In this document: positions 1 through 16,139 of the stretch, in pieces | How positions within the stretch are numbered: position 1 is the stretch's first letter | Layout of the letters: the number at the start of each line of letters is the position of its first letter | NCBI GenBank assembly: GCA_963771175.1 | Contig: CAVYSY010000044.1 | Coordinates: 32,001 to 96,000 of the forward strand | Reading direction: 5' to 3' | Origin: an uncultured delta proteobacterium | Lineage (GTDB): Bacteria > Myxococcota > Myxococcia > Myxococcales > Myxococcaceae | Length of the DNA stretch: 64,000 nucleotides | Position numbers and translations under genes: made by a program | The notes under the pieces: model-generated | What the model was told of the DNA's origin: nothing | Database searches by the model: none | Seen by the model: only the letters and a program-made list of their open reading frames with translations

Positions 1-482
1 ATGTCCTCGATGAGATCTCCGGCGTGATCGGGCAGCCCGGACAGGTGGCTCAACCACTGTCGGAGGGTCGTGCTCCCCGCCGCGTGGGCCAGTTTGTATG
101 GATGCTTGCGCTCATTGTCTTGATACACGACCTCGTCCCACTTGGGCTCTCCGCCCGTTCTGTCGACGAGCAGTGTCGTCGAGACGGACTTGGACACCGA
201 CGCGCAGGGGAACAACGTATCGGGGCCGGGCGTCGAGGAGGGATCGTCGAGCCTCTTCACGCCGTATCCGAAGTAGAGGACCTGGCTCGTCGGGCGGTGG
301 ACGACCGCGATCGACAGGCCGGGTGTCCAACACTCCCCCCATGGCCCCTGGCGGGTGGCGAAGTCCGCCGCCTCCTTGAGCACGGCGACGGCCGCGTCCA
401 CCTCGGCGGCGGTGCAGTGCCTCGTTTGCGGAGGCGGAGGGTCTTTGAGGTATTTGACGGCGTCGTAATCACTATTTTTCAT
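1..482 (-). CDS. Serine hydrolase, beta-lactamase class C-like (5' part; runs off the window edge)
   Basis: Manual minus-strand translation from ATG 482: MKNSDY...PGLSIAVV...FGYGV...PDTLFPCASVSKS (SxxK)...LRQWLSHLSGLP. Not in the ORF track because it is open at the edge. Confidence 0.8.
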   Translation of the reverse strand, partial: MKNSDYDAVKYLKDPPPPQTRHCTAAEVDAAVAVLKEAADFATRQGPWGECWTPGLSIAVVHRPTSQVLYFGYGVKRLDDPSSTPGPDTLFPCASVSKSVSTTLLVDRTGGEPKWDEVVYQDNERKHPYKLAHAAGSTTLRQWLSHLSGLPDHAGDLIED

Positions 483-538
483 CGTACGACTACATATGCG
501 CGCCCGGGCACCGTCAATAGGAAGAGCCTGTCTGAGAA

Positions 539-557
539 GGTGTCAAACACCTCGTAA
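539..557. repeat. REP-like end motif GGTGTCAAACACCTCGTAA
   Basis: Exact reverse complement of the copies at 2553-2571 and 2599-2617; internal hairpin GGTGT-CAA-ACACC. Confidence 0.85.
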
Positions 558-561
558 GCGG

Positions 562-649
562 CGGGGAAGGTGTCGGGGAAGGCGGGGAAGGTGTCAAAGG
601 ATTCGTTTCGACACCTCGTCTCCTACGAATCGTCTGACACCATTCCTGC
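562..649. repeat. REP doublet hairpin, copy 1 (GGTGTCAAAGGATTCGT...ACGAATCGTCTGACACC)
   Basis: Near-identical direct repeat of 1058-1136; each copy is an imperfect inverted pair of the motif that flanks the RAYT gene. Confidence 0.85.
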
Positions 650-695
650 CGCCACCTCGGGTCTGATTTCGAGCTGGGCGTGGGCGCAGGCCCCA

Positions 696-1046
696 TCATC
701 GGAGCAAGAACGTCCGGTGGGCCTCCGCGAGCCCATCGAACGCGGCCTGTTGCCGACGAATCGCCTTGAGGAGATCCATGCCGCAGTGAGGACAGTACTG
801 CAGCGGGAGCTCCATCATCACCTTGATGCCGAGGGCGCGCCCTTGCTCATCGCGGTTCAGGCGCCCCATCAGCTCTCCGTGCTCCTTGCCCAGCGCCCCC
901 AGTTCCTTCAGCTGCCACTCCGTGAAGGGTCTCGCCTGGACGACGAACCGGCGATAGTCCCCATCGCGGAAGGCCACCACGCCCAGGCCCTGACTCCCAG
1001 TGGTCGCGAGCATGTTCGTCAACCATTCGCAGCCTTCGAATTCCAT
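696..1046 (-). CDS. Hypothetical protein (116 aa, CPHC motif)
   Basis: GGAG RBS upstream of the ATG; protein-like composition; lies between two REP doublets. Confidence 0.7.
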   Translation of the reverse strand: MEFEGCEWLTNMLATTGSQGLGVVAFRDGDYRRFVVQARPFTEWQLKELGALGKEHGELMGRLNRDEQGRALGIKVMMELPLQYCPHCGMDLLKAIRRQQAAFDGLAEAHRTFLLR

Positions 1047-1057
1047 GACCGATTCTC

Positions 1058-1136
1058 CGGGGAAGGTGTCGGGGAAGGTGTCAAAGGATTCGTTCCGACA
1101 CCTCGTCTCCTACGAATCGTCTGACACCCTTCCTGC
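1058..1136. repeat. REP doublet hairpin, copy 2
   Basis: Direct repeat of 562-649. Confidence 0.85.
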
Positions 1137-1153
1137 GCAACCTCCGAGGCGCG

Positions 1154-1930
1154 TCACTCCGCCCAGGTGAGCACTTCCACCATGCGCACGAAGAGCCGGT
1201 CGTTGCTGACGGCGGCCACCACGAAGCCCGCCGACTCGCCCGGGCCGCCCCGGCCCATGGAGCGCCAGCTCGAGATGTAGAGCCGCTGGCCGGTGCCCGA
1301 AACCTGCTTGAGGTACGCCACCGCCCCATCCACCTCCGCCGCGGTCGGCGTGCCCGAGTACGTGCGCTGCTGCAGCCGGGTGCGCAGCTCGGCCTCGGTG
1401 ACGGGCTCGAAGAAGTACGGATAGTCGTAGTAGCTGCCGAAGGCCCACCCGTACGTCTCCAGCAGCGTCACCTGATTGGCCTCGCCGTCGCCCTCGGCGA
1501 TGGAGCCCTCCTGGATGCGCGAGCTGCTCGCGAGCGGTCCGCTCGCGCCGTACAGCTGGGCCGGCGTGCCCGACACCGCGTCCATCCCCAGCGGGTTTCC
1601 GTAGTCCGCCGCGTCGTTCAGCTCGTGGAAGGCGTTGAGGTACGTCTTCGCATCCGCCGCCACGCCGGTGAGGAAGGTGGCATTGCCCACCTTCGTGGCC
1701 AGGTGAGCATGCTCCGCCGAGTCCACCCAGTAGTCCGAGGCGAAGGCGTCGAGCGCGTTCACCATCTCCGAGCGGGTGACCGTCGTGCCACTGGTGCTGG
1801 TGCTGGCACGCGCGGCCGTCATCCTCGAGTCGAAGAGGGCAATGTTCGCGGCGCTGTCCGCCAGGGCGGCAGGCGCGGTCAGCAGCGCCAGTGCGCCGAC
1901 GAGGGACTTGAGAGAGGAGCTGGACTTCAT
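1154..1930 (-). CDS. Secreted hypothetical protein (258 aa)
   Basis: Signal peptide MKSSSSLKSLVGALALLTAPAALA; strong GC3 codon bias. Confidence 0.8.
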   Translation of the reverse strand: MKSSSSLKSLVGALALLTAPAALADSAANIALFDSRMTAARASTSTSGTTVTRSEMVNALDAFASDYWVDSAEHAHLATKVGNATFLTGVAADAKTYLNAFHELNDAADYGNPLGMDAVSGTPAQLYGASGPLASSSRIQEGSIAEGDGEANQVTLLETYGWAFGSYYDYPYFFEPVTEAELRTRLQQRTYSGTPTAAEVDGAVAYLKQVSGTGQRLYISSWRSMGRGGPGESAGFVVAAVSNDRLFVRMVEVLTWAE

Positions 1931-2064
1931 GGGGGGGGACCTCGCGAAGGCCGGGGGGGCCAGTAGGGGGGGGGGACTTCATCGAAGTTCCTACTATCGT
2001 TCAGAATGGCAGATCCAGCGGAAAAATCATGTTTCACTGCTTTTGCGGGTTCGTGACACAGGCT

Positions 2065-2552
2065 TCAAACGGCGCGACGCAGGGCGTCGAGGAGGGCGTC
2101 CAGGTCCGCGTCGGTGTGAGGGGATTGATGAGGGTGGTGCGCAGCTACACGCGCCCGCCGAGCGTGGTCTGCACCAGGTAGAAGTCCCCGCGGGTGACGA
2201 GCGACTCGCGCAGACGCACCTGGAGCGCGTCGAGCGCCGAGGCGGGGAGGCCCTGGGGGGGGTGTGGCGGAAGCAGACGATGTTGCAGTCGGGCGGCATG
2301 GCCAGCTCGAAGTCGCCGGAGGACTGGAGGCGCTCGGCGAAGCGGCGGGACAGGTCGAAGGGGTCGGTGACGGAGTCGGCGAAGAGCTTCGTGCCGAGGG
2401 TGCTCAGGCAGGTATACAGCTCGAGGGCCATCATCTCCTTGGTGCACTCGAGGGTGCGCAGCGCCACGTCGCTCCAGCGCCGCGTGTCCTGGCCGGTGAA
2501 GAGGTCGGAGGCCTCCTGGGCGAAGGCCTCGAAGGAGCGGTGGCCCTCGCCA
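2065..2552 (-). pseudogene. 3' fragment of a group II PLP-dependent decarboxylase
   Basis: LRTLECTK...PDCNIVCFRH...DFYLVQTTLGGRV*LRTTLINPL; internal stop and frameshifts; the 5' part is missing and the break falls at the REP copy at 2553. Confidence 0.75.
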
Positions 2553-2617
2553 TTACGAGGTGTTTGACACCCATTACGGGGACACCCATTACGAGCCATT
2601 ACGAGGTGTTTGACACC
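2551..2617. repeat. REP-like end cluster (TTACGAGGTGTTTGACACC x2 with stuttered CCATTACG units)
   Basis: Copies at 2553-2571 and 2599-2617, inverted relative to 539-557. Confidence 0.85.
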
Positions 2618-2676
2618 TGGGCCGGCGCCTGGGCCGCCTGGGCTGTGGCCGCCTGGGCCGCTCTCGAACAGCCTGC

Positions 2677-3447
2677 TCACTGCCCGAGCGATTGGGGCGG
2701 CGGCTTCACGCTGAACATGGGCAAGTAACACTCACCCTGGTGCTCGTAGAGGTTATCCGGGCAGGGGCCCTTCAGCTTATGAGGCACCCAGCAGGCGCCG
2801 ATGAGCTCTACCTCGGTGTAGCGCGTGCAGGGGGGACGTTTCTGTCCTTTGAAGGGCTCGCGTGGGAGAGGTCGGGCGAGCACGAACTCTCCCTGGGGCG
2901 TACTGTCCGCGAGCCAACCGTCGTTGACAGGGTCTGGCCTTCCAGTGGCCAGCGGAGCGCTCACTCCAGGCGCCAGACCGTTCGGCGGTTGGGACACGGG
3001 AGCCAGATGAACCAGGGTGAAGAGCAGGGCGCCCACCACGACGGCACCAGCCAATCCCACGTGCCACCAGGGGCGCCGGGGCGCGGGTGAGGCGGAGAAG
3101 GCGTGTGCCATGCGCCCCACGGCCTTGTGCACATCCTCCAAGGTGGACACCAGCGACTCCACCGATTGCCTGTCGGGAGCCACGGACCTCGGGGTTTGCT
3201 CCACCTCCATGGCATCGTAGCCAGACGTGGAGATGATGCGGACCCGCAGGTCGATCAGCGGCTCCGCCCTCTCCTCATCCCTGGCGGCGGGCTTGAACAC
3301 CAGGGCCGGCGCCCCACTCGTCTCGTGCGTGGCCCGGTAGAGCTCCCCCTGGCCGCAGTCGTCCTGCGGCACCTGCTCCTGGAGTTGATACGGCCCCACC
3401 TTCCCCGCTTCCTCCCAGCTCAACTCGGGCTTCTTCGGCTCATCCAT
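2677..3447 (-). CDS. Myxobacterial kinase-derived membrane protein with C-terminal Cys-rich domain
   Basis: GPYQL...GQGELYRA resembles a Ser/Thr kinase N-lobe but HRD and DFG are absent; one TM segment; C-terminus PFKGQKRPPC...GACW...CP...GECYLP. Confidence 0.7.
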   Translation of the reverse strand: MDEPKKPELSWEEAGKVGPYQLQEQVPQDDCGQGELYRATHETSGAPALVFKPAARDEERAEPLIDLRVRIISTSGYDAMEVEQTPRSVAPDRQSVESLVSTLEDVHKAVGRMAHAFSASPAPRRPWWHVGLAGAVVVGALLFTLVHLAPVSQPPNGLAPGVSAPLATGRPDPVNDGWLADSTPQGEFVLARPLPREPFKGQKRPPCTRYTEVELIGACWVPHKLKGPCPDNLYEHQGECYLPMFSVKPPPQSLGQ

Positions 3448-3570
3448 GCGCGATCCTCGCTGGCCTCCACTCCTGCCCGAGGCCCTGCCCCCGTGCTCGC
3501 ATGGAGCCGAACTCATGCACCAGGAGGCATGCGGTTCCCTCAGGGGCTCCCTACTCAACAAGAGACACGC

Positions 3571-3642
3571 CAGAGACGGTGTCCAGAGAGGGTGTCAAAG
3601 GATTCGAATCGCCCAGAGACGGTGTCAAAGGATTCGAATCGC
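3571..3642. repeat. Left REP end of RAYT (GGTGTCAAAGGATTCGAATCGC x2)
   Basis: Tandem copies at 3591-3612 and 3621-3642, preceded by CAGAGA(C/G) stutters. Confidence 0.9.
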
Positions 3643-3771
3643 AGGACTTGAGCCAGAACGAGACTCGGCGTGGACGGGTGAACCTACCGGCTCCCAAGTC
3701 TTTCTGCGGACTTGGAGTTGGCCCACAGGGTGCATCCGGCCTGGCCGAGCGCACGCAGGGGATGGGGATGG

Positions 3772-4704
3772 ATGGGCTGGCCGTTGAGGATGTTCCAGGA
3801 GGAGGGTCTCTATTTCGTCACGTCCAGGTGCTTCCAGGGACGGCTGCTGCTGCGTCCCAGCGCGGAGGTGAACGAGGTGGTTGGAGGCGTGCTGGCGCGA
3901 GCCGTCCAGCGGAGCGCCGGTCACGTGCGGCTGCACGCCTTCACCTTCGCTTCCAACCACTTCCACCTGCTGGTGTGGGCGCGGGGGGCAGCGCTCTCCG
4001 CCTTCATGCAGTACCTGCGTGCCAACCTGTCCAAGAAGCTGGGGAGGTTGGTGGACTGGAGCGGCGGTTTCTGGGAGAGGCGTTACTCGGCGGAGCCGGT
4101 GCTGGACGACGGGGCGCTGGTGGGGCGGCTGCGCTACGTACTGGCCCATGGGGTGAAAGAGGGGCTGGTGGAGAGAAGCACCGAGTGGCCGGGCCTCACG
4201 TGTCTACCGCAATTGCTGGGGCCGGCACGGCGACTGTTCCAGTGGTTCAACTGGACGAAGCGCTGGACCAAGAGGGGGAGCGAGGACATGGCAAGAGCGC
4301 AGGGGCGCTTTGCCAAGGAATGGGCTGAGCCAGTGGCGTTGGAGGTGGCTCCCCTGCCGTGTTGGGAAGGCCTGGGGGAGGAGGAGAGGCAGCGTGCGGT
4401 GCGGGGACTGGTGGAGGAGGTGGAGGCCGAGGCTCGCGCACGGGACAAGCCTGTCCTGGGGGCGCGAGCCGTGAAGGCCCAGCACCCGCATACCCGGCCC
4501 GAGCAGCTCAAGCGCAGCCCGCGGCCGTTGGGGCATGCCTCCACGCGCCAGGCGCTGAGGGAGTTGCGCGAGCAGTACCGTGCCTTCGTCGCGGCGTTCC
4601 AAGAGGCGGCGGCTCGGTGGAGGCGGGGAGACTTCTCGGCGAGCTTTCCTCTCTACTCCTTCCCGCCGCGTATCGTGCCGGGTCGTGTCGCGCGAATCCT
4701 TTGA
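3772..4704 (+). CDS. REP-associated tyrosine transposase (HUH/Y1, RAYT/TnpA-REP-like)
   Basis: YFVTSRC; ASNHFHLL (HUH motif); FWERRY; RYVLAHGVKEGLV...WP (catalytic Tyr region); flanked by inverted REP ends, with the stop codon inside the right end. Confidence 0.88.
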   Translation: MGWPLRMFQEEGLYFVTSRCFQGRLLLRPSAEVNEVVGGVLARAVQRSAGHVRLHAFTFASNHFHLLVWARGAALSAFMQYLRANLSKKLGRLVDWSGGFWERRYSAEPVLDDGALVGRLRYVLAHGVKEGLVERSTEWPGLTCLPQLLGPARRLFQWFNWTKRWTKRGSEDMARAQGRFAKEWAEPVALEVAPLPCWEGLGEEERQRAVRGLVEEVEAEARARDKPVLGARAVKAQHPHTRPEQLKRSPRPLGHASTRQALRELREQYRAFVAAFQEAAARWRRGDFSASFPLYSFPPRIVPGRVARIL

Positions 4705-4736
4705 CACCCTCTCCGGACACCCTCTCCGGGCACCCT
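4693..4736. repeat. Right REP end of RAYT (CGAATCCTTTGACACC plus stuttered GACACCCTCTCCG)
   Basis: 4693-4708 is the exact reverse complement of 3621-3636. Confidence 0.9.
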
Positions 4737-4899
4737 GCCTACCGGGCAAGCTCTTCATCACCCCTCCTCTCCGGGGCAGGGGAGTTCACTGCCGGGCGTG
4801 GGCATCGTGCCGCGGTGTTCCTCTCTGTCGTTGCAGTCGGAATCCCGTCTGCCCCCGGGGGCTCATGGTCGCGAGCGCATTCGGACGAATCCTTGGCGC

Positions 4900-6855
4900 A
4901 TGACTTCCTGCCCACGAATCCTCGTGGCCGTGGTGCTCCTGCTCGGTGGCACACGGTGTATGGACAAGCAGCCGCCCGTGGTGGATGACGGGTCTCCCCG
5001 GGAGGTGCTCGAGCCACCTCCCGCGGCGCCCGCGACGCCGCCGCCGCAATCCAGGTCGAGGCGGGAGGTCATGTACCGCTTCCTGGACGAGGGGGACCGG
5101 GAGCGCGCCAATCTCCTCCTCGCCAACCGCTGGCCCGTCACACGTTTCCCGGACGTCGAGCTGCCTCCGTCACCTACGTGGACGGAGGATCCGTTCCGCG
5201 AGAAGTTCTGGCGCTTCGAGTTCTACGGGCTGCGCCCCTTGCGCCACCTGATGCGGGCCTGGCTCGACACCGGGGATGACCGCTACCGCGTCCGGCTCAC
5301 CGCGGTGCTGGAGAGCTTCGTCGCGCACGGTCATGACTCCGCGTTCGCCTGGGACAAGCACACCACCGCCTACCGGGGTATGTCCCTGGTCAACCTCTAC
5401 GTGAAGCTGAAGTCGCGCGGGGCGCTCCCGCCCGGGTTGGAGCAGGGCCTGCGCGAGCGCATCCTCGAGGTCGGCTCCTTCCTCCACGACCCCAAGAACT
5501 ACGAGCCCGACTACAACCATGGCCTCGCCGAGGCCGGGGCGCTGCTGCTCATCGCGGAGAACTTCCCGGAGTCCCAGGCCGCCTCCTCCTGGCGCACCAC
5601 GGCCCTCGCGCGGCTGGACGGGCTGCTCGCTCAGGTGCTCGACGAGGACGGGGTGGAGGTGGAGCAGTCGCCCTTCTACCACTTCTATTTCATGACGGGC
5701 TTCTGGGAGATCTACCACTGGGCCCGCGAGAACGACGTTCCGCTCTCGCCCCAGGCGGAGACGCGCATCCGACAGATGATCCGCTACGCCGCATACATCA
5801 CCCTGCCCGATGGGAACGTCCCGATGCTCGGCACGAGCGTGGCGCGCAACGTGCGCAAGTCCCAGGACACGCCCCGGTACGCGGAGATGGCCGCCCTGGA
5901 CCCCGCCTTCGAGTACGCGCTGACGGCAGGCCGCTCGGGCACGCCGCCACCGGAGACGCGGATGCTCTTCCCCTCCTCGGGGCAGGCGGTGCTGCGCTCC
6001 AGCTTCGGCACGGCGGCGGACTTCCTCCAGCAGACGCACGTGATTGTCGACGTGGGCCCGTACCGGACGCTCCACAGCCACCTGGACGCGCTCGCGTTGC
6101 AGCTCTACTCGGCCGGCCGGACGCTGCTACCGGACTCGGGCCACTTCTCCCCCGAGCCCGGGCCCGACTTCGACTACTTCAACAGCACTCGCGCCCATAA
6201 CACCGTGGTGGTGGATGGGCGGGACCAGCGCGTGGGCGCGGCCCGGGCCGGGTTGTCCACGGGGGCGGGCGGTTGGGCCTACCAGTCGGGCGCGCACGAG
6301 CTCTACGACGGTGTCGTGCACCGGCGCGCGGTGTTGTTGCTCCGGCGCGACCTGGTGCTCGTCGTGGACGACCTGAGCAGCGCCACCCCGCATGTCTACG
6401 AGCAGACCTGGCACCTCTTCCCCGAGGCGGAGCTGCGGGTGGAGGACCTGCGGGCGACGGCCCTCGAGTCCGGCTCGGGCCGGGCACTGCTCACCCTGCA
6501 CCAGTTGATGCCCGCATCCGGCTTGGACCTCCAGTGGCGCAAGGGGCGCACCGCGCCCCTCGACGGGTGGTACTCCGCGCGCTTCGAGATCAAGCTCCCC
6601 AACTACGCGCTGCATTACCAGCGCAAGGCTGCGCAAGCGGTGTACGTCACCGTGCTGGCCTCGGGCGAGCTGGCGAGCCTGCCCCTGCAAGGAGGGGCGC
6701 GGGGCGACACCCGGAAGCTGGAGGCCACCGTGTGCCTGCCCTCGGGGGCTGGCTATCACGTCGCCATCACGAACCTGACCGGGCCCGGGGAGGGGGTCAC
6801 CGTGGACGAAGTGCCCGCCTCCTGCCAGGTGCCCGCCCTGGACTCGCGGCCGTAG
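4900..6855 (+). CDS. Heparinase II/III-family polysaccharide lyase, probably exported
   Basis: YNHG; DGVEVEQSPFYH; HSHLDAL; DSG; STRAHNTVVVDG motifs; hydrophobic N-terminus ending in Cys. Start uncertain (4798 or 4900). Confidence 0.85.
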   Translation: MTSCPRILVAVVLLLGGTRCMDKQPPVVDDGSPREVLEPPPAAPATPPPQSRSRREVMYRFLDEGDRERANLLLANRWPVTRFPDVELPPSPTWTEDPFREKFWRFEFYGLRPLRHLMRAWLDTGDDRYRVRLTAVLESFVAHGHDSAFAWDKHTTAYRGMSLVNLYVKLKSRGALPPGLEQGLRERILEVGSFLHDPKNYEPDYNHGLAEAGALLLIAENFPESQAASSWRTTALARLDGLLAQVLDEDGVEVEQSPFYHFYFMTGFWEIYHWARENDVPLSPQAETRIRQMIRYAAYITLPDGNVPMLGTSVARNVRKSQDTPRYAEMAALDPAFEYALTAGRSGTPPPETRMLFPSSGQAVLRSSFGTAADFLQQTHVIVDVGPYRTLHSHLDALALQLYSAGRTLLPDSGHFSPEPGPDFDYFNSTRAHNTVVVDGRDQRVGAARAGLSTGAGGWAYQSGAHELYDGVVHRRAVLLLRRDLVLVVDDLSSATPHVYEQTWHLFPEAELRVEDLRATALESGSGRALLTLHQLMPASGLDLQWRKGRTAPLDGWYSARFEIKLPNYALHYQRKAAQAVYVTVLASGELASLPLQGGARGDTRKLEATVCLPSGAGYHVAITNLTGPGEGVTVDEVPASCQVPALDSRP

Positions 6856-7043
6856 ACGGGGACCGGAGCTCGATTCTCACCTTCGTCTCGCGCTCTGGAC
6901 AAGTCCACCTCGGCTCCCGCCAAGAAGCCCGGCACCGTCTATCGGGTAGAGGGGCCGGAGAACCAGTGCGTTTCCTTCGACAACGGAAAGCCCCATGTCT
7001 CCAAGTCCTTCCATACCAAGACGGTGATGAAGGCCTCTGACAT

Positions 7044-7244
7044 GCTGGGGCGGTTGGTGGACTGGCGCGGCGGTTTCTGGGAGAGGCGTTACTCGGTGGA
7101 GCCGGTGCTGGACGACGCGGCGCGTGTGGGGCGGCGACTGCGTGTCGTGCCGGGTCGTGTCGCGCGAATCCTTTGACACCCTCTCCGGCGAATCCTTTGA
7201 CACCCTCTCCGGGACACCCTCTCCGGAATGTCGAGTTTGACACC
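7044..7244 (+). pseudogene. Internally deleted RAYT remnant with duplicated right REP ends
   Basis: 7044-7123 matches RAYT ~4038-4117 (4 mismatches); 7142-7187 matches the RAYT 3' end; CGAATCCTTTGACACC at 7165-7180 and 7189-7204; TTTGACACC at 7236-7244. Confidence 0.88.
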
Positions 7245-7313
7245 CGTCCGGCCCTTTCGAGCACGGCAGAAAGGGGAGCTGCCCATACGTTGGAGGGAGA
7301 AGAGGAATGGTCG

Positions 7314-10300
7314 ATGCCCCTCCGACTCCTGACGTACGAAGCAGTCGACGAACTCTACGAAAGCCGACGCACGCAGATCTGGCGAGGGCATCGGCTGGCG
7401 AGCGGTGAGCCGGTCGTCCTGAAGGTCCTGAAGCCCGAGGCGGCCACCGACAGAGAGCACGCCCGGTTCAGGCACGAATTCCTGCTCACCGCCAGGGCCG
7501 AGCTCCCAGGGGTCATCAAGACGTTCAGCCTGGAGTCCTTCGACGGAAGCCTGCTGATGGTGCTGGAGGACATCGGCGGCGAGTCGCTCGAGCGCCTCTG
7601 CGCACGGACGCCGCTCTCCCTGCCGCGATTCCTGGAGCTGGCGATCGGGCTCGCCGACACCGTGGCACGGCTCCACCAGCGGCGAATCATCCACAAGGAC
7701 ATCAATCCGGCGAACATCGTCCTCGCCCCAGAGACCGGCGAGTATCGGCTGATCGATTTCGGCATCGCCGACGAGCTTCCCCAGCACGAGGTCGCCCCGC
7801 GCCCACCGGCCGCGCTGGAAGGGACGCTCGCCTACATCTCGCCCGAGCAGACGGGGCGGATGAACCGCGCGGTGGACTACCGCACTGATTTCTACTCACT
7901 GGGCGCGACCTTCTACCAGCTGCTGACGGGGCGGTTGCCGTTCGAGGTCGACGACGCCCTGGGACTGGTGCACTGCCACATCGCCGGAACACCGAGGGCG
8001 CCGCATCTGCTCGATCTCCGGATACCGCAGACGGTTTCCCGCATCGTGATGAAGCTGATGTCGAAGCGGGCAGAGGACCGCTACCAGAGCGGCTGGGGGC
8101 TGAAAGCGGACCTGGAGAGGTGCTGGCGGGGACTGCGCGAGGAGGGGGGCGTCCCGGACTTCGAGCCCGGCCTGGAGGACTTCGCCGACCGGCTCCAGCC
8201 GCCGCAGAAGCTCTACGGACGCGAAGAGGAGGTCGGCCGCCTGCTCGCCGCCTTCGAACGGGCGGGCGCGGGAGGACGCGAGCTGCTCCTCGTGGCCGGC
8301 TACGCCGGCGTGGGCAAGACCACGCTGGTGCGCGAAACGCACCGCCCGATCCTGGAGAAGCGAGGGAGCTACATCGAGGGCAAGTTCGATCAGCTCCAGC
8401 GCAATGTGCCCTATTCCGGCTGGATCCAGGCGTTCGAGGGGTTCGTGAACGACCGCTTGATGGAAAGCGAGTCGGAGTTGGCGCGCTGGAGGCGAGACCT
8501 CCTGAGCGCGGTGGGAAGCAGCGGCAAGGTCCTGACGGATGTGATTCGGAACCTGGAGCTGGTCATCGGAGCCCAGCCCGCCGTTCCCGAGCTGAGCGGC
8601 GCCGAGGCGCAGAACCGCTTCAACTACCTGTTCCTCGCGCTCGTCGGAGCCATGGCCACGAGGGAGCATCCGCTTGTCGTCTTCCTCGATGACCTGCAGT
8701 GGATTGATGAGGCCTCGCTCGGCCTGCTGCGGACCCTTCTGACCAGCAGCGGCATCTCGAGCGTCCTGGTCATCGGCGCCTATCGCGACAACGAAGTGAA
8801 CGCGCTGCACCCGCTGATGAGGACCGTCGAGGCCCTGCGCAAGGAGGAGGCGAGGTTCGAACTGCTGACTCTCGGGAACCTCTCGGAACAGACGGTCGAC
8901 GAGCTCGTCGCCGATACCCTGCGGGATGAACGCTCGCGCACCAGGCCGCTCGCCCGTCTCATCTACTCGAAGACGGGAGGCAACGCGTTCTTCACGCTCG
9001 AGATGCTCACGAGCCTGGCGGAGCGGCGGGCCATCTCCTTCGACGTCGAGAGCCGACGCTGGCAATGGGACATCTCCGTGCTCGAGCGCATGGAGATCAC
9101 CGACAACGTCGTCTCCCTGATGCTCGGGAAGCTCCAGAAGCTGGAGTCGAACACGCGCCGGGTGCTGACTCTCGCGGCGTGCATGGGTTTTCGATTCGAC
9201 GTGTCGAACCTGAGCACCATCGCCCGGCGCTCCGAGGACGACACACGGGAGAGCCTGGAGCCCGCGCTGCGCGAGGGCCTCGTCGTGCCCGCGGGGTCGG
9301 AGTTCCAGTTCGCGCACGACCGCGTGCAGCAGGCGGCCTATTCGCTCATCCCCGAGGCCGACGAGAAGAAGACGCACCTGGAGATCGGTCGGCTTCTGCT
9401 TCGGCGTCCCTCGGAGCGCGACCACGAGGAGCAGCTCTTCACCGTGGTCGATCATCTGAACGTCGGAGCCGGGCTGCTCGAGACGGACGCCATGAGGCTG
9501 GAGCTCGCCGGCCTGAACCTGCGGGCAGGGCGCAAGGCCAAGGCCTCCGCCGCGTTCGCCGCGGCCGCGAGGTACTTCGAGGCCGGGGTGGCGCTGCTGG
9601 GCGAGGAGACGTGGGCGACCGACTACCGACTGACGCTCGACCTGCACTCCCTGGCGGCGGAGGCCGCCACCCTCGTCGGCGATTTCCGGCGGACGGACCT
9701 CCACTTCGACGCCGTCGTCCGTCACGCCCGCAATCCAGCCGACATGGTCGCGGCGTACATGAGCAGGATGATGGCGTTTTCGGCGCAGGGCCGGCTTCCG
9801 GAGTTCATGGATTGCGCTCTGGACATTCTCGATCGGCTCGGCGTCCACGTGGAGCCGCACCCGACCGCCGAGGACATCCAGCGCGCGCTGGCGGAGGTCA
9901 GGTCAGCCTACGACCCGAAGGCCATCGGGGCTCTCATGAATCTTCCGAGCGCAACCGATCCCTTCGCGATGGCGGCCATGTCAGTCCTGGATATGGCGAC
10001 AGGCAGCGCCTACAGCGGCAGACCGGACCTGTACGTGTTGTTCGTGTGCCAGCAAGTCAAACGCACCATCGAATTCGGCATCACTCCCGAGTCGATGCGT
10101 TCCTTCGCATGCCTGGGATTGCTCCTTTGCGGACTGCCGGGCGGAGACGTGGACCAGGGCTACCAGTTCGGCATGCTGGCAATGGCGCTCGCCGAAAAGG
10201 CGCCGTCCTCCGTGAGCGCCCCCGGGGCCATGGGCCTTACGGCGGGAATGGGCTTGCACTACAAGCGGCACCTGCGGGATTCGCTCGAGCTGCTCGCCCC

Positions 10301-13300
10301 GCTCTATCCTCGTTTGAAGGAGAGAGGGGATTTCGAGTTAGCGAGCTACATTGGCTGTTGGTACTGCTCCAACGCGTTGCTCTCCGGCAAGGAGCTGGTC
10401 GAGCTCGAACGCGAGATGGCCGCGTACTACCGGGACATGAAGCACATCCGGTCTGAAGTGGGCATCCGCTGGTTCTCCGCGTTCTGGCAGGCGGCGCAGA
10501 ACCTCCTCGGACGTTCCGCCTGTCCGTGGGTCCTGGACGGCGAGGTCTACGACCGACGGGAGATGCTGCGCGTCATCGTGGAGACCGGAAACCTCTCCGC
10601 CCAGACGGCCCTGCACGTCAACACCCTCGTGCTCTGCTACCTGTTCGAGCGCTACGACGAGGCGCTCGCCGCCTCCACCCTGGCTGAGGAGAACAAGGCC
10701 GGGATGGTCGCCATGCCCATCGAGCCGGTCTGGGTTTTCTACGACTCCCTGACCCGGCTCGCGCTCTGTTCCCGGGCCTCCCCTTCCGAGAAGGAGCGCC
10801 ATTTCGAGAGAGTGGCCGCCAATCAAGCCTATCTGGAGCTGAGGGCCCATCACGCTCCGATGAACTTCCGGCACAAGTGGCACCTGGTGGAGGCGGAGCG
10901 GGCCCGGGTGCTCGACGACCAACGGGCAGCCATCGAGCACTACGGCCGCGCGGTCGCCCTGGCGCGGGACAACGGCTTCGTGCAGGAGGAGGCGCTGGCC
11001 GACGAGCTGGCCGCACGGTTCTGGGCGGGCGCGGGGCAGGCGGACTACGCGCGGCTACACCTGGAGCGGGCACACCGCGGCTACGGGCGGTGGCAGGCGT
11101 GGGCGAAGGTGAGCGCCCTCGAGGCCAGCCACCCCGAGCTCGCCGCGCGGCCGGCCTGGCCGCCGGGTGAGCCGGGCGCACTCGACCTCGAGACGGTGAT
11201 GAAGGCCGCGCACGCGATCTCTCGCGAAATCGAGCTGGACCGGCTGCTCGGCACCGTGATGCGGATCGTCATCGAGAACGCCGGGGCGCAGAGCGGAGTC
11301 CTGCTCCTGGAGCAGGACGGCGAATGGATGGTCGCGGCGAAGGGAGACATCGGCGCCCAGGAAGTGGAGAGGCCGCTGCCGGTGGGCCTGGACCAGAGCG
11401 ACCGGGTCTCGCCCGCCGTCGTGCGCTTCGTGGCCCGCACCCGGGAGCGGGTGGTGCTGGACGACGCGGCGAACGAGGGGAGGTTCCTCGGAGATCCGCA
11501 CATCCGACGGGCGAGGACCCGGTCGCTGCTCTGTGCGCCGCTGTCGAGCCGCGGCAAGCTCGTCGGCGTCCTGTACCTCGAGAACAACCTGGCGACGGGC
11601 GCGTTCACCCGGGACAGGGTCGAGCTCCTCGAGATGCTCCTCTCGCCGGCGGCGACCTCGCTGGAGAACGCCCGAATCTACGAGGCGCTGAGAGAGAGCG
11701 AGGCCAAGTACCGCCGCATGGTGGACACGGCCACCGAGGGCATCTGGGCGCTCGGGCCGGACGACACCACGACCTTCGTGAACGACATGATGGCCGGGAT
11801 GCTCGGCTATTCCAGCGAGGAGATGCTGGGCCGCCCGTTGAGCGATTTCATGTTCGAGGAGGACGTGCCCAACCATCTGGAGAGGATGAGGAATCGTCGC
11901 CGGGGACTCTCCGAGAAATTCGAGCGAAGGCTGCGCCGCCAGGATGGGCAGGCGGTGTGGCTCCTGACCTCCGCCACCCCCATCTTCGACGAAGCGGGTC
12001 ATTTCCTGGGCTCCTTCGCGATGTTGACCGACATCACCGAGCGCAAGCGCGCCGAGGATGAGCTGCGCGCCGAGCGCAGGATGTTCGTGGGCGGGCCGAC
12101 CGTGGTGTTCAAGTGGAAGGCCATGGAGAGCTGGCCGGTCGAGTACGTGTCGCCCAACGTCGCGAACCAGTTCGGCTACGTCCCGGAGGACCTCATCAGC
12201 GGCAAGGTCCAGTATTCCGCCATGGTGCACCCGGACGACCTCGCACGCGTGGTCGCCGAGGTCTCCGCGAACAGCGAGCAGGGTGCGTCTTCGTTCGAGC
12301 AGCTGTACCGCGTTGTCCGGAGCGACGGGGTCTATCGGTGGATCAACGACTTCACGACGATCGTCAGGGGGCGGGATGGCTCCATCACCCACTATCTCGG
12401 GTACATCGTGGACATCACCGAGCGCAAGCTGGCGGAGGAGGCGCAGCATCGCTTGAATCGCGAGCTGCGGGCCCTCAGCAGCTGCAACGAGGTGCTGCTG
12501 CGGGCGGTGGACGAGCAGGCCCTGCTCGACGACATCTGCCGCATCGTCTGCGACGAGGCCGGCTACCGCATGGCGTGGGTGGGCTATGCCGAAGACGACG
12601 ACGCCAGGACCATCCGCCCCGTCGCCTGGGCCGGGCTCGAGAGCGAGTCCGACGAGCACATCAGGCGCTCCTGGGCCGACGAGACCGAGCAGGGGCGAGG
12701 GCCGGCGGGCTCCGTCATCCGCAGCGGCCGGACGCTCCACATCCAGAATCTCACGGCCGTCCAGCAGACGGCCCCCTGGCGGGAAGACGCCTTGCGGCGG
12801 AGCCATCGCGCCCTCGTCGCCCTGCCGCTCAAGGACGAGAGCGGCAAGGGCTTCGGTGCCCTCTTGATCTACTCCTCGACGCTCCAGACCATCACGCCCG
12901 ACGAAATCCGGCTCCTCGAAGAACTGGCTGGGGATCTCGCGTTCGGCATCGGCGTCCTGCGCGCCCGTATCGAGCGTAAGCGGGCCGAGCGCGCCGTGGC
13001 CCTCATGAGCTTCGCCCTGAACAACGTCCACGAGGCGGCTTTTCTCATCGACGAGCACTCGCGCTTCCAATACGTCAACGAAGAATCGTGCCGCATCCTG
13101 GGGTATTCGCGCGACGAGCTGCTCGGCATGGGAGTGGCGGACGTCGACCCTGACTTCCCCGAGTCCCGGTGGCCCGGTCATTTCGAGCGGCTCCAGGCCG
13201 AGCGCGCCCTCACCTTCGAGGGCCGCCAAAAGGCGAGGGATGGCCACGTCTTCCCGGTGGAGATCAACGCCAACCACTTCGAATTCGACGGTCAGGGCTA

Positions 13301-14498
13301 CAACATGGCCCTCGTGCGCGACATCACCGAGCGCAAGCAATCCGAGAGGGAGCGGGAGCGCCTGCTGGAAGACGTGCAGCGAGAGCGGAGTCTGCTGGGA
13401 GTGGTCCTCGACACCGCCCCGGTCGGCATCACCGTCTATCTGGCGCCGGATGGCCGCCCGAGGTTCTTCAACAAGGCCGCCGAGAGAATCCTCGGCCGAC
13501 CCGTGGGACCGCCGGAGCTGAGCATCGCCGAGAGGGCCGGCTTCCACGACCTCAGCCTGCCCAGCGGCGAGCCGTTCCCGGCCGAAGAGCTGCCGCTCAC
13601 TCGCTCGTTGCGCGGGGAGATGCTCGCGGGCGTCGAGTTGCTCGTCCGCCAGCCCACGGGTCGCGAGGTAAGCATCTTGGAGTACTCGGCCCCCATCCGC
13701 GACGCCGAGGGACGCATCGAGGGCGCGGTGCTCGCCTTCCAGGACATCACCCCCATCCGGGAGCAGGAGCGGCTGCGCGAGGAGTTCATCGCCGCGGCCG
13801 CCCACGAGCTGAAGACCCCGGTCACCGTGATACGGGTCTACGCGGAGGCGCTGCGGCGCTGGGCTCCAGAGGGGCGCGAGGGGCGCGAGGCGCGTGCCAT
13901 CGAGGTGCTCAACGCGCAGACCCACCGCATTGATCGCCGGGTAAAGGAGATGTTGGAGGTGGTCCGGTCCCGCAACGCGCCGACGGTGCTGATGCGGAGC
14001 CGCTTCGACCTGGGCGAGCTCGCCGAGCACATGGTTGAGAGGATGCAGGCCCTCACGACGAGCCACCGGCTGTCCTTGCGTCGCCAGGGTGCGATTCCAG
14101 TCGAGGCCGACCGCGAGCGCATCCAAGAGGTGTTGGCGCGCCTGCTGGACAACGCGCTCGAGGTCTCACCGCGGGGCGGAGACATCGAGGTCCGGGTGTG
14201 GTCGCAGCACGGAGAAGCGCTGGTTTCGGTGCGCGACCAGGGAGTCGGCATACCGAAGGAACGACAGCCGCACGTCTTCGAACCCTTCTACGAGGCATTG
14301 CCCTCCGGTGCCCCGGGCTATCGCAACGTCGTGAGTCTGAGTCTGTACTTGAGCTGGCTCGCCATCAGTCAACACCAGGGGCGCATCTGGCTGGAGAGCG
14401 AAGAAGGGAAGGGCTCGACCTTCTCCTTCTCGCTGCCGTTGGCGAAGAGCGGCGAAGAGGAGCTCTCGGCACCGGCTGGAGAGCAACAGCAAAGCTGA
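7314..14498 (+). CDS. Hybrid Ser/Thr kinase - AAA ATPase - GAF - PAS - GAF - PAS - histidine kinase (~2,390 aa)
   Basis: HKDINPANI, DFG, GTLAYISPEQ; Walker A GYAGVGKT and LDDLQWID; GAF LYLENN; several PAS/PAC (DITERK); H-box HELKTP; DQGVGI. Confidence 0.92.
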   Translation: MPLRLLTYEAVDELYESRRTQIWRGHRLASGEPVVLKVLKPEAATDREHARFRHEFLLTARAELPGVIKTFSLESFDGSLLMVLEDIGGESLERLCARTPLSLPRFLELAIGLADTVARLHQRRIIHKDINPANIVLAPETGEYRLIDFGIADELPQHEVAPRPPAALEGTLAYISPEQTGRMNRAVDYRTDFYSLGATFYQLLTGRLPFEVDDALGLVHCHIAGTPRAPHLLDLRIPQTVSRIVMKLMSKRAEDRYQSGWGLKADLERCWRGLREEGGVPDFEPGLEDFADRLQPPQKLYGREEEVGRLLAAFERAGAGGRELLLVAGYAGVGKTTLVRETHRPILEKRGSYIEGKFDQLQRNVPYSGWIQAFEGFVNDRLMESESELARWRRDLLSAVGSSGKVLTDVIRNLELVIGAQPAVPELSGAEAQNRFNYLFLALVGAMATREHPLVVFLDDLQWIDEASLGLLRTLLTSSGISSVLVIGAYRDNEVNALHPLMRTVEALRKEEARFELLTLGNLSEQTVDELVADTLRDERSRTRPLARLIYSKTGGNAFFTLEMLTSLAERRAISFDVESRRWQWDISVLERMEITDNVVSLMLGKLQKLESNTRRVLTLAACMGFRFDVSNLSTIARRSEDDTRESLEPALREGLVVPAGSEFQFAHDRVQQAAYSLIPEADEKKTHLEIGRLLLRRPSERDHEEQLFTVVDHLNVGAGLLETDAMRLELAGLNLRAGRKAKASAAFAAAARYFEAGVALLGEETWATDYRLTLDLHSLAAEAATLVGDFRRTDLHFDAVVRHARNPADMVAAYMSRMMAFSAQGRLPEFMDCALDILDRLGVHVEPHPTAEDIQRALAEVRSAYDPKAIGALMNLPSATDPFAMAAMSVLDMATGSAYSGRPDLYVLFVCQQVKRTIEFGITPESMRSFACLGLLLCGLPGGDVDQGYQFGMLAMALAEKAPSSVSAPGAMGLTAGMGLHYKRHLRDSLELLAPLYPRLKERGDFELASYIGCWYCSNALLSGKELVELEREMAAYYRDMKHIRSEVGIRWFSAFWQAAQNLLGRSACPWVLDGEVYDRREMLRVIVETGNLSAQTALHVNTLVLCYLFERYDEALAASTLAEENKAGMVAMPIEPVWVFYDSLTRLALCSRASPSEKERHFERVAANQAYLELRAHHAPMNFRHKWHLVEAERARVLDDQRAAIEHYGRAVALARDNGFVQEEALADELAARFWAGAGQADYARLHLERAHRGYGRWQAWAKVSALEASHPELAARPAWPPGEPGALDLETVMKAAHAISREIELDRLLGTVMRIVIENAGAQSGVLLLEQDGEWMVAAKGDIGAQEVERPLPVGLDQSDRVSPAVVRFVARTRERVVLDDAANEGRFLGDPHIRRARTRSLLCAPLSSRGKLVGVLYLENNLATGAFTRDRVELLEMLLSPAATSLENARIYEALRESEAKYRRMVDTATEGIWALGPDDTTTFVNDMMAGMLGYSSEEMLGRPLSDFMFEEDVPNHLERMRNRRRGLSEKFERRLRRQDGQAVWLLTSATPIFDEAGHFLGSFAMLTDITERKRAEDELRAERRMFVGGPTVVFKWKAMESWPVEYVSPNVANQFGYVPEDLISGKVQYSAMVHPDDLARVVAEVSANSEQGASSFEQLYRVVRSDGVYRWINDFTTIVRGRDGSITHYLGYIVDITERKLAEEAQHRLNRELRALSSCNEVLLRAVDEQALLDDICRIVCDEAGYRMAWVGYAEDDDARTIRPVAWAGLESESDEHIRRSWADETEQGRGPAGSVIRSGRTLHIQNLTAVQQTAPWREDALRRSHRALVALPLKDESGKGFGALLIYSSTLQTITPDEIRLLEELAGDLAFGIGVLRARIERKRAERAVALMSFALNNVHEAAFLIDEHSRFQYVNEESCRILGYSRDELLGMGVADVDPDFPESRWPGHFERLQAERALTFEGRQKARDGHVFPVEINANHFEFDGQGYNMALVRDITERKQSERERERLLEDVQRERSLLGVVLDTAPVGITVYLAPDGRPRFFNKAAERILGRPVGPPELSIAERAGFHDLSLPSGEPFPAEELPLTRSLRGEMLAGVELLVRQPTGREVSILEYSAPIRDAEGRIEGAVLAFQDITPIREQERLREEFIAAAAHELKTPVTVIRVYAEALRRWAPEGREGREARAIEVLNAQTHRIDRRVKEMLEVVRSRNAPTVLMRSRFDLGELAEHMVERMQALTTSHRLSLRRQGAIPVEADRERIQEVLARLLDNALEVSPRGGDIEVRVWSQHGEALVSVRDQGVGIPKERQPHVFEPFYEALPSGAPGYRNVVSLSLYLSWLAISQHQGRIWLESEEGKGSTFSFSLPLAKSGEEELSAPAGEQQQS

Positions 14499-14504
14499 CG
14501 GGGC

Positions 14505-15287
14505 TCAGCGCGCGGTGAAGCCGCCGTCCACCACGAGCTCGCTGCCCGTCACGTAGCGCGAGGCGTCCGAGGCCAGGTAGAGGATGGCCTCGGCGATGTC
14601 CTCGGGCTCACCCATGCGGCCCAGCGGCGAGGCGGCCTCCAGCTTCTTCCAGGCCTCCTCCTCGCTGCCCACCTGCTGCACGAAGCCCTCCCACCAGTCC
14701 GCGTTCTGCCAGATGGGCGTGCGCACCCCGCCCGGGAACACCGCGTTGACCCGGATGCCCTCCGGTGCGCACTCCACCGCCACCGCCTTGGTGAGCATGC
14801 GCACCCCGCCCTTGCTCGCCGAATACGCGCTCGTCCCCGGGCTGCCCACCAGCCCCGCCACCGAGGACACGTTGATGATGGAGCCCCCGCGCGTCCCCAG
14901 CCGCATGGTGCGCACCGCGTGCTTGGTGCCCAGGAAGACGCTGTCCAGGTTCACCGCCATCTGCTCGCGCCACTCGGCCAGCGTCATCTCCGCCACCGAG
15001 CGCGACACCTCGATGCCCGCGTTGTTCACCAGCACGTCCAGCCGGCCAAAGGACTCGAGCACCCGGGAGATGACCTTCAGCCACACCGTCTCGTCCGTGA
15101 CGTCGTGCGTGACGAAGATGGCCTGACCACCGGCCGCGCGAATCTCCTGCGACACCTGCTCGCCCGCCGGCGAGATATCCGTGGCCACCACCTTCGCGCC
15201 CTCTCGGCCAAACAGCAGGGCCGTGGCTCGACCAATACCCGACGCCGCCCCCGTCACGAGGGCCACCTTGTCCTTCAATCGGCTCAT
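14505..15287 (-). CDS. SDR family oxidoreductase
   Basis: TGAASGIG, NNAG, YSASK, VDGG. Confidence 0.92.
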   Translation of the reverse strand: MSRLKDKVALVTGAASGIGRATALLFGREGAKVVATDISPAGEQVSQEIRAAGGQAIFVTHDVTDETVWLKVISRVLESFGRLDVLVNNAGIEVSRSVAEMTLAEWREQMAVNLDSVFLGTKHAVRTMRLGTRGGSIINVSSVAGLVGSPGTSAYSASKGGVRMLTKAVAVECAPEGIRVNAVFPGGVRTPIWQNADWWEGFVQQVGSEEEAWKKLEAASPLGRMGEPEDIAEAILYLASDASRYVTGSELVVDGGFTAR

Positions 15288-15422
15288 AGCGGCTGTGCAA
15301 CCTTCCCTATCCCTCGGGGGAGGGATTTCAGGGCAGGGGCACCTTACCTGACTTGCACGATTTTCCAGCCCCGTAATTGGGGACGGGTGCGGGAGACGCA
15401 CACCCGGAGTGAGGCCCGCGCG

Positions 15423-15980
15423 CTACCGGCCCCGGGAGCGTCCTCCGCCCCGGCTGGTGCCGCGCCGCTCGGGGCTCTGCCTCGCGCCTCCCCGCTGCGC
15501 GCCCTGTCCCTTCGTCTTACCGCGTGACGGGGTGGAGCGAGCCGTGCGGCCCGCCGCACTCCGGGGGGCCCGACGCTCGCCACTCGCCGCCGTGCTCTTC
15601 CGGGTCGCCCGGCGCGGAGCGGCCCGCTTCGCCGCGGCCTCGGCCAGCTTCTGGTGATGGCGCGACGGCCCCACCTTCTCACCCGTCTCCAGGTCCACCG
15701 TCTCGCGGGCGATGAGCTTGTTGAAGTTGCTCCGGTGGCCGTGCGCGTGCGCCGAGTACACGAGCGCCAGCTGGTTCTCCTCGAACTTCTTGAAGAACTC
15801 GTCCCAGGAGATGGGCTCCAGCGTCCCCCTCCCCGCATAGCCCGGGAAGTCGATCCGCAGGATGCCCGTCTGGTCGCCCTTCGCCGTCCCCATCACCATC
15901 GACGGACGGCCACAGCGCGCATCCGCCCACTCGCGAATCTCCTCATGGTCAATCGTCACCCGAGAGCTCTTCATCGTCAT
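15423..15980 (-). CDS. Conserved hypothetical protein with basic, histone-like C-terminal tail
   Basis: TIDHEEIREWA...GILRIDFPGY...ISWDEFFKKFEE domain followed by an R/K/A/S-rich tail. Confidence 0.75.
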   Translation of the reverse strand: MTMKSSRVTIDHEEIREWADARCGRPSMVMGTAKGDQTGILRIDFPGYAGRGTLEPISWDEFFKKFEENQLALVYSAHAHGHRSNFNKLIARETVDLETGEKVGPSRHHQKLAEAAAKRAAPRRATRKSTAASGERRAPRSAAGRTARSTPSRGKTKGQGAQRGGARQSPERRGTSRGGGRSRGR

Positions 15981-16139
15981 GGCGCACCCCCTGTGCATGA
16001 GCGCCGCGCCTGACAGCGGCCCTCCCAGCAAGGGTGCACCTCGTCGACTCCGGGGACTACCCGTGTCCCCTCGGTGCAACCTCCCTGGGGCCTCGCGTGG
16101 CGGGTGTTGCCTCGGAGCCCGAGCGGACGGGCGGGGCCC

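Follow-up and report, generated by a model that had tools for sequence, protein, structure and literature searches.

Transposon ends at the breakpoints of captured and duplicated DNA: a probable flank-swapping role for a Y1 HUH transposase in a myxobacterial gene island

How unrelated genes come to be lined up with copies of one short repeat between them is the question raised by a 64,000-nucleotide stretch from an uncultured soil myxobacterium (assembly GCA_963771175.1, contig CAVYSY010000044.1, positions 32,001 to 96,000), referred to here as the window. Its repeats lie between 539 and 7244, around the gene of a Y1 HUH transposase and within a 21-kb island of borrowed genes; window position 1 is position 32,001 of the contig, coordinates marked C44 count along the whole contig, and G000 denotes this genome. 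The original prediction described a REP-associated tyrosine transposase (RAYT) that captures, stacks and shuffles whole cargo genes by means of its repetitive extragenic palindromic (REP) sequences. Comparison with related genomes points to a different system. The array is probably built from the ends of a mobile Y1 HUH transposon bounded by terminal inverted repeats (TIRs), together with 52-bp doublets of such ends, each end likely serving as a site at which flanking DNA is swapped. The ends coincide exactly with the points at which captured and duplicated DNA breaks off, the arrays are locus-specific and run in one direction, and blocks come and go between near strains.

The transposase gene (3772..4704, + strand) is intact, as predicted, and lies between perfect 16-bp inverted repeats at 3621-3636 and 4693-4708 that extend to 24 bp at 92-96% identity. 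Its frame is open from the ATG at 3772 and encodes 310 aa; a 4-bp duplication at 3763-3771 puts an upstream ATG out of frame, and the second ATG still opens the full frame. The protein features H63-F-H65, Y122 in a YxxxHG motif and a 140-aa C-terminal extension, with H63, H65 and Y122 kept in at least 90% of 124 clade members and PF01797 found in 112 of them. Only Y1_Tnp matches the protein (21 bits), nothing of the IS91 type being found, while the RAYT model NF047646 gives 50.6 bits against a cut-off of 80. The predicted structure (predicted local distance difference test score 80.6) best matches E. coli TnpA_REP, 4ER8 (Foldseek E 2.9e-4; Z 14.2, root-mean-square deviation 2.9, 155 residues aligned), and in this whole-protein comparison none of the listed fold matches covers the C-terminal domain. 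The HUH motif and catalytic Tyr on an IS200-like fold place the enzyme in the Y1 HUH superfamily.

The closest named homologs, about 80-93% alike, occur in Archangium and Cystobacter. The clade comprises 858 clusters at 50% identity (E<=1e-30) and is patchily distributed, being present in 90 of 301 genomes of the class and 16 of 17 congeners, and TIRs surround transposase copies in relatives as well. In this genome there are five near-full copies (82-86% alike), of which three are split, as well as many stumps. Against 24 intact copies the median ratio of nonsynonymous to synonymous substitutions (dN/dS) is 0.15, a sign of purifying selection, and pairs 94-98% alike sit 4-10 kb apart in the same direction, with one 98% pair 1 Mb apart. 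The gene is therefore taken to be functional in the lineage and mobile.

The repeat family is represented by GGTGTCAAA, of which the 9.83-Mb draft genome contains 126 copies where Markov models of order 2-4 expect 5-13 (10-20 fold enrichment); all 13 sites of GGTGTCA[AG]A in the window fall inside 539-7244, seven further sites lie to its left, and the array reaches C44:28266. Among the matches listed by a genome-wide motif scan most were due to chance, and its loci were excluded from the counts. Chance or assembly artefact was considered as a source of the array and rejected on the strength of this enrichment and of such ends and stutter (truncated re-copies of an end) in closed genomes and independent contigs. 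The motif copies are of three kinds. A ends (GGTGTCAAAGGATTCG) bound the transposase, and their 16-mer recurs at 590, 1077 and 3591 (+) and at 7165 and 7189 (-); B ends (GGTGTCAGACGATTCG) are the partners of A ends in the 52-bp doublets (590-641 and 1077-1128); the third kind, termed C-type, is a 19-bp double end and occurs at 539 (+), 2553 and 2599. The predicted motif positions 539, 2553, 2599, 3591, 7165, 7189 and the region of 7236 are correct, those at 589 and 1078 are off by one (590 and 1077), and the partner B ends at 626-641 and 1113-1128 had been missed. The doublet at 1077-1128 folds as a bulged hairpin (z -3.5), whereas single ends give no fold (z +1.3 and +0.2), and the GT[AG]G foot is absent at the ends. 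Rfam gives no match in window 1-16000.

From left to right, the array within the window opens with a C-type double end (539..557, +) that resembles the ends of a sister transposase clade and recurs with identical letters beside 48-52% homologs (L184, L185). It is followed by a stutter of three truncated end re-copies, each restarting at a C seven bases outside GGTGTC (559..589, +), by the first doublet, which reads from A end to B end and is MITE- or REPIN-like (miniature inverted-repeat transposable element; REP doublet forming a hairpin; 590..641, +), and by a stutter unit with the second doublet (1058..1128, +). Two further C-type double ends (2553-2571 and 2599-2617) with stutter on both strands occupy 2551..2660 (strand unassigned). 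The left TIR of the transposase element consists of three stacked copies (3570..3642, +; core 3621-3636), and the right TIR, with stutter, overlaps the stop codon (4693..4736, -). At 7044..7244 (+) lies an internally deleted transposase stump (93% to 4038-4129 and 98% to 4668-4716) with its right end, stutter copies and one more end, the last of the window array, at 7233-7244. As predicted, most gene junctions carry ends: six of the seven from hydrolase to sensor kinase are marked, and the remaining one, between the secreted-protein and decarboxylase genes, is native.

Such a pattern could in principle arise if repeats had merely been inserted between genes that stand in the same order in relatives, the case that would have undone the original prediction. 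It fails: in all eight relatives fetched, the lipase-chaperone gene leads directly into a short-chain dehydrogenase/reductase (SDR) gene, and the region is motif-free across 20 kb. Here 21 kb (C44:25376-46505, window -6624 to 14507) separates two 158-bp copies of the SDR gene 3' end, 93.7% alike, at C44:25217-25374 and at window 14495..14651 (strand unassigned). Because the island is absent and the site empty and motif-free in 8/8 relatives, the repeats were not dropped into old intergenic gaps.

The clearest capture is the block at 1131..2550 (-), which carries an intact gene for a 258-aa secreted protein (1154-1930) and the 3' stump of a pyridoxal phosphate (PLP) decarboxylase gene (about 2065-2550), with an end on each side. 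It is present as one block in 4 of 11 congeners searched (83-91%), and all four have it within a core locus that is free of the motif and encodes the complete 490-aa decarboxylase. In the window the decarboxylase is cut nine bases outside the double end (-9), and the other side of the block joins the doublet B end (-7/-3), in line with the prediction that ends mark capture breakpoints. The block is 91% like G007 overall and 95-97% near the joints; the flanking genes are 81-87% like G007, and the decarboxylase is 89% like this genome's own, so the block probably came from another lineage. A second, shredded remnant of this block at G000:C6:162999-163400 keeps its native flank and carries no end. 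Left of the window, 639 bp copied from the interior of the lipase-chaperone gene (99.5% identical) lie 4 kb away from the original and begin eight bases outside an A end. At the block and at this copy alike, the new DNA adjoins the end on its outer, target side. The expectation of whole, gene-sized cassettes does not hold: besides truncated genes and non-coding pieces, the cargo includes scraps as short as 80-640 bp and stretches of several genes, up to 12 kb long.

Footprints were also counted over larger sets of ends. A truncated head-to-tail copy of the end lies upstream, across the junction, at 153 of 317 ends versus 102 of 3000 controls (211 of 461 ends in a larger set); relative to GGTGTC, 127 of the 153 restart at -9..-6, and their stops range from +1 to +43, with 84 at +5. 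The trinucleotide C-N-G, with variable N, occupies -7..-5 in 319 of 461 ends (background 0.10). Among 306 stutter-free ends, 76 have an element-free homolog of the flank, and 43 of these 76 break at -12..-7; in these 43 the last shared base is C in 37 (simulated 0.52), the last shared bases are GC in 24 by hand count (simulated 0.18), and C-N-G spans the joint in 21 (simulated 0.17). A local element-free copy of the flank (at least 95% identity) was found for 3 of 354 ends; all three copies lie inward and have the same orientation, at distances of 2.2, 4.05 and 10.6 kb, and one falls inside a transposase gene. Another of the three, on contig C32, is a full tandem: its unit of 2.24 kb begins at a decayed end, and the joint carries a new end. 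Neighbouring doublets share a direction in 31 cases and oppose each other in 5, while identical variants are concentrated among near pairs, both for A ends (39/182 near versus 138/2543 far) and for B ends (18/79 versus 10/989). Target-site duplication was examined and rejected, as the triplets on the two sides of a doublet agree in 11 of 35 cases versus 8 by chance.

Gain and loss were followed by aligning contigs of four runs (X1-X4) to the region, the best pieces being 95-99% alike; island parts without cover in X4 (L155 2665-6200) were not taken as absence. A single 7.7-kb contig of X4 joins 3568 to 7226 with 89 letters between, and thus goes without the 3.7 kb of transposase, heparinase gene and stump, both breaks falling at end stacks. 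X4 also has about 4.3 kb of other DNA beyond the left doublet of the CPHC gene and a doublet ahead of the pseudo-kinase gene, and X1, X2 and X3 carry a longer stump (to 3943, joined to 7091) ahead of the kinase gene. The predicted stacking and shuffling of cargo finds no firm change of order: since the X4 joints (560-1071 and 648-2596) run through repeats, they show gain or loss, which fits equally well, and order shuffling in X4 is not claimed. At G000:C44:169446-169779 lies a 334-bp form of the transposase element with an internal deletion, 91-97% like the copy in the window, and its deletion joint recurs in X1, X2 and X4.

Similar arrangements occur elsewhere. At three isolated doublets in genus g28, most of the five relatives compared for each have the two flanks at distant places or with other DNA between them; the site L255 is near-empty in 1 of 5 relatives. 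Genome G001 has same-direction arrays of 78 and 15 kb, both reading + although they lie near opposite ends of the coordinate range, which may speak against an orientation set by replichore; a 1473-bp gene-plus-end block is repeated in G001 26 kb apart at 97.6%. A 52-kb contig of this genome (G000:C49:1461-51230) carries about 60 ends and 11 doublets, 10 of them in one direction, and its genes, like those of the window, mostly run toward the B end.

Cleavage by HUH enzymes yields a 5'-phosphotyrosine together with a 3'-OH, which is able to attack or to serve as a primer for synthesis. E. coli TnpA_REP is described, in the available text of one report, as cutting between C and T, forming a 5'-tyrosine link and needing an attacking 3' C (PMC8266576). 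The transposase is likely to nick beside the C of C-N-G, 6-9 nt outside GGTGTC, on the strand reading into the element, keep the element side as 5'-phosphotyrosine and rejoin it to any available 3'-OH, with a preference for the point between C and N of G-C-N-G. A 3'-OH from the end's own extended flank or the sister chromatid would yield a tandem copy of 1 nt to several kb, and the array would grow; one from another locus or incoming DNA would place new DNA next to the end, and a cargo block would become enclosed after two such events. A nick at -9..-6 and rejoining of the 5' side to an inner 3'-OH would produce the fixed start and variable stop of stutter copies, and a single reaction would thus account for stutter and kilobase tandems as well as for capture and local arrays of one polarity. 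The prediction is that DNA is captured blindly, intact genes being retained by selection and blocks lost through recombination between repeats. Such a route would need no integron integrase.

Several observations weigh against this interpretation. Neither outer border of the island carries a transposon end, which points to entry or fixation by another route and not to one-step insertion by the element. The far end of the 639-bp copy lacks the motif and requires a later deletion, and the heparinase and kinase junctions are not traceable to a donor. The loci were picked around ends and from kin, so the counts are not independent and p-values overstate; 33 of the 76 homolog-defined junctions fall outside -12..-7 and were left out of the base counts. 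The cut is not placeable to the base, as positions 5' and 3' of the C both fit, and second-strand resolution is unexplained by the model. Among distant homologs, the inverted core is found at both ends in only 7 of 20 under a strict pattern.

The bare borders also figure in another account, judged unlikely, in which the enzyme captures nothing, selfish REPIN- or MITE-like doublets pile up in acquired islands, and RecA or slippage between repeats causes gain and loss. The 158-bp host repeat at the borders, a doublet that forms a hairpin of REPIN size, usual island residents among the cargo (a DUF6310/DUF5953 pair, Imm26) and the near-empty site L255 would all suit it. What it does not accommodate is that flanks are replaced rather than interrupted at 3/3 isolated doublets tested, in most relatives, that a gene is cut exactly at an end, that target duplication is lacking, and that kilobase duplications terminate at an end with fixed polarity.

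Same-direction doublets, several with one gene between, the bulged hairpin with its conserved A/B asymmetry, a median block of 1.2-3.1 kb, the repeated G001 block, block gain and loss at repeats in X4 and a draft genome without an integron integrase over cut-off could together suggest a domesticated integron analogue, in which attC-like doublets let gene-doublet units leave as circles and reinsert beside the transposase. This seems quite improbable, given that blocks range from truncated genes and scraps to multi-gene stretches, that joints lie outside the hairpin at variable new targets, that the transposase has several copies, is often broken and is missing at this position in X4, and that no circle junction was seen in the contigs. 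Ordinary composite transposition, whereby two elements flank a native block and the pair then moves as a unit by its outer ends, is very improbable: the block at 1131-2550 does lie between a doublet and a double end with suitably facing outer ends (1077, 2617), and copies of the whole transposase element do recur, at 98%, over a distance of 1 Mb, but the native locus has no ends in 4/4 relatives, the C6 remnant retains native flank, target duplication is missing, and one-ended duplications and stutter are left unexplained. Flank swapping at single ends remains the preferred interpretation.

Among known systems, the closest are TIRtron/TIRYT elements (Di Nocera et al. 2013, PMC3733652) and, probably, the transposases of subclass 2.1 (Quentin et al. 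2018, 10.1101/279083), which correspond to RAYT group 1 of Bertels et al. 2017 (PMC5581495). As described in the available text, TIRtrons likewise have a Y1 HUH gene between terminal inverted repeats, lack the REP foot and have TIR repeats as dimers and clusters away from the gene; their core GGGGWSAS is fitted at 7 of 8 positions by GGTGTCAG (B end) and at 6 of 8 by GGTGTCAA. Class 2 and subclass 2.1 are characterized there by Y---NP, whereas here the motif is YxxxHG, the residues after Yxxx among the 124 members being HG in 69, QG in 25, NG in 12 and NP in only 6. The C-terminal helix-turn-helix (HTH) of subclass 2.1 (Bac_DnaA_C, HTH_23, HTH_28) has no Pfam match in these 124 members, a helical C-terminal part being present in the model. 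Class 2 genes are stated to have no evidence of mobility (10.1101/279083), and, unlike the present case, the accessible portions of the TIRtron and subclass 2.1 accounts mention no cargo, polar arrays, target rule or mechanism. Subclass 2.1 tnpA_REP genes are also reported to be interspersed with prochlorosin genes, where a diversifying role was proposed and the causal link left open by the authors (10.1101/2020.03.09.984088); there too, in the text available, full and truncated group 1 type copies lie among variable genes, but these belong to one gene family, whereas here unrelated cargo is bounded by base-level junctions. The literature searched contained no description of such arrays, most subscription papers being outside its reach, and none of five myxobacterial genus names is present in the supplements of PMC6006769.

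TnpA_REP/RAYT systems with REP, bacterial interspersed mosaic element (BIME) and REPIN repeats, known from E. coli and Pseudomonas, supply the best structural match (4ER8) and resemble the present case, in the available parts of the reports, in inverted doublets of about 50-65 bp and junctions after C (PMC8266576; 10.1101/2021.07.10.451892). Here, in contrast, the foot and single-end hairpins are missing, there are tens to about 200 repeats, concentrated in islands, and the gene is multi-copy and mobile. With a subthreshold NF047646 score, no hairpin foot and a gene neither single-copy nor immobile, the system is not RAYT/REP of groups 2 and 3, and the predicted RAYT and REP identity is not supported. 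IS91/ISCR elements have an HUH enzyme, one-ended events, duplication or movement of adjacent DNA and no target duplication; they differ in dissimilar ori and ter ends and in protein family, and they carry along DNA that lies beyond the far end. The present system resembles them in one-endedness, but both of its ends are alike, as inverted copies, and new DNA is joined on the outer side. Integrons form same-direction arrays of short imperfect hairpins between variable accessory genes. Here the joints lie outside the hairpin, cargo is not limited to whole promoterless genes, no fixed, attI-like insertion site was seen in the contigs, and no IntI tyrosine recombinase exceeds the cut-off in the 82% complete draft genome. 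By its defining features the system is not an integron; the predicted label of an integron-like platform lacking a tyrosine integrase suits the outcome, not the machinery.

The predicted gene labels hold for the cargo. A beta-lactamase-fold serine hydrolase of 563 aa continues left of the window (5' part, 3..482, -), and 60 further genomes of the family have no match to it at E<=1e-60. The 116-aa CPHC protein is encoded by a lone gene between two doublets (696..1046, -) that was not found with this query in 17 congeners, only unnamed look-alikes appearing otherwise; donors of neither gene were found with the queries used. The 256-aa protein at 2677..3447 (-) belongs to a "pseudo-kinase-like" family of myxobacteria, which is multi-copy and begins like a kinase at the N-terminus; its members are 70-79% alike over many loci and often beside ends. 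This protein, the CPHC protein and the secreted protein have no Pfam match. A heparinase II/III family lyase (4900..6855, +) is 86% like repeat-free copies on this genome's contig C17 and in G009, and a 2394-aa Ser/Thr kinase-AAA-GAF-PAS-histidine kinase (7314..14498, +), absent at the locus in 8/8 relatives, is the last island cargo. At G000:C44:25518-29601, the DUF6310/DUF5953 pair accompanies an orphan Imm26 gene whose toxin partner has been cut away at an A end; toxin-immunity modules are found repeatedly next to ends, including the C32 tandem. At G000:C44:29825-30613, an ISL3-type HTH fragment lies inside a piece common to contig C54, between two ends. Outside the array, a 781-aa open reading frame at 25410-27755, with no ends nearby, presumably encodes a large serine recombinase, judging by its N-terminus.

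TIR-bounded Y1 transposases were described in 2013 (PMC3733652), and the accounts consulted report no test of them; what is new here is base-level evidence of ends at the joints of capture and duplication. The locus and its kin supply a cut window, strand polarity, a target preference and natural products in the form of stutter, kilobase duplications and captured blocks, and these footprints make the whole clade of 858 clusters open to oligonucleotide assay. A bolder view, offered only tentatively, is that myxobacteria may keep, for host benefit, a capture platform driven by the HUH transposase, with polar arrays of up to 80 kb whose nicked hairpin doublets would be ligated to foreign DNA at the C-N step of G-C-N-G, multiply along with adjacent genes and exchange cargo between strains, an equivalent of the integron based on 5'-phosphotyrosine strand transfer. 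If flank swapping is correct, a small enzyme would ligate a short tag to frequent sites where GC meets NG, and large myxobacterial genomes would have a route to accessory-gene arrays for which neither a tyrosine integrase nor a DDE enzyme is needed.

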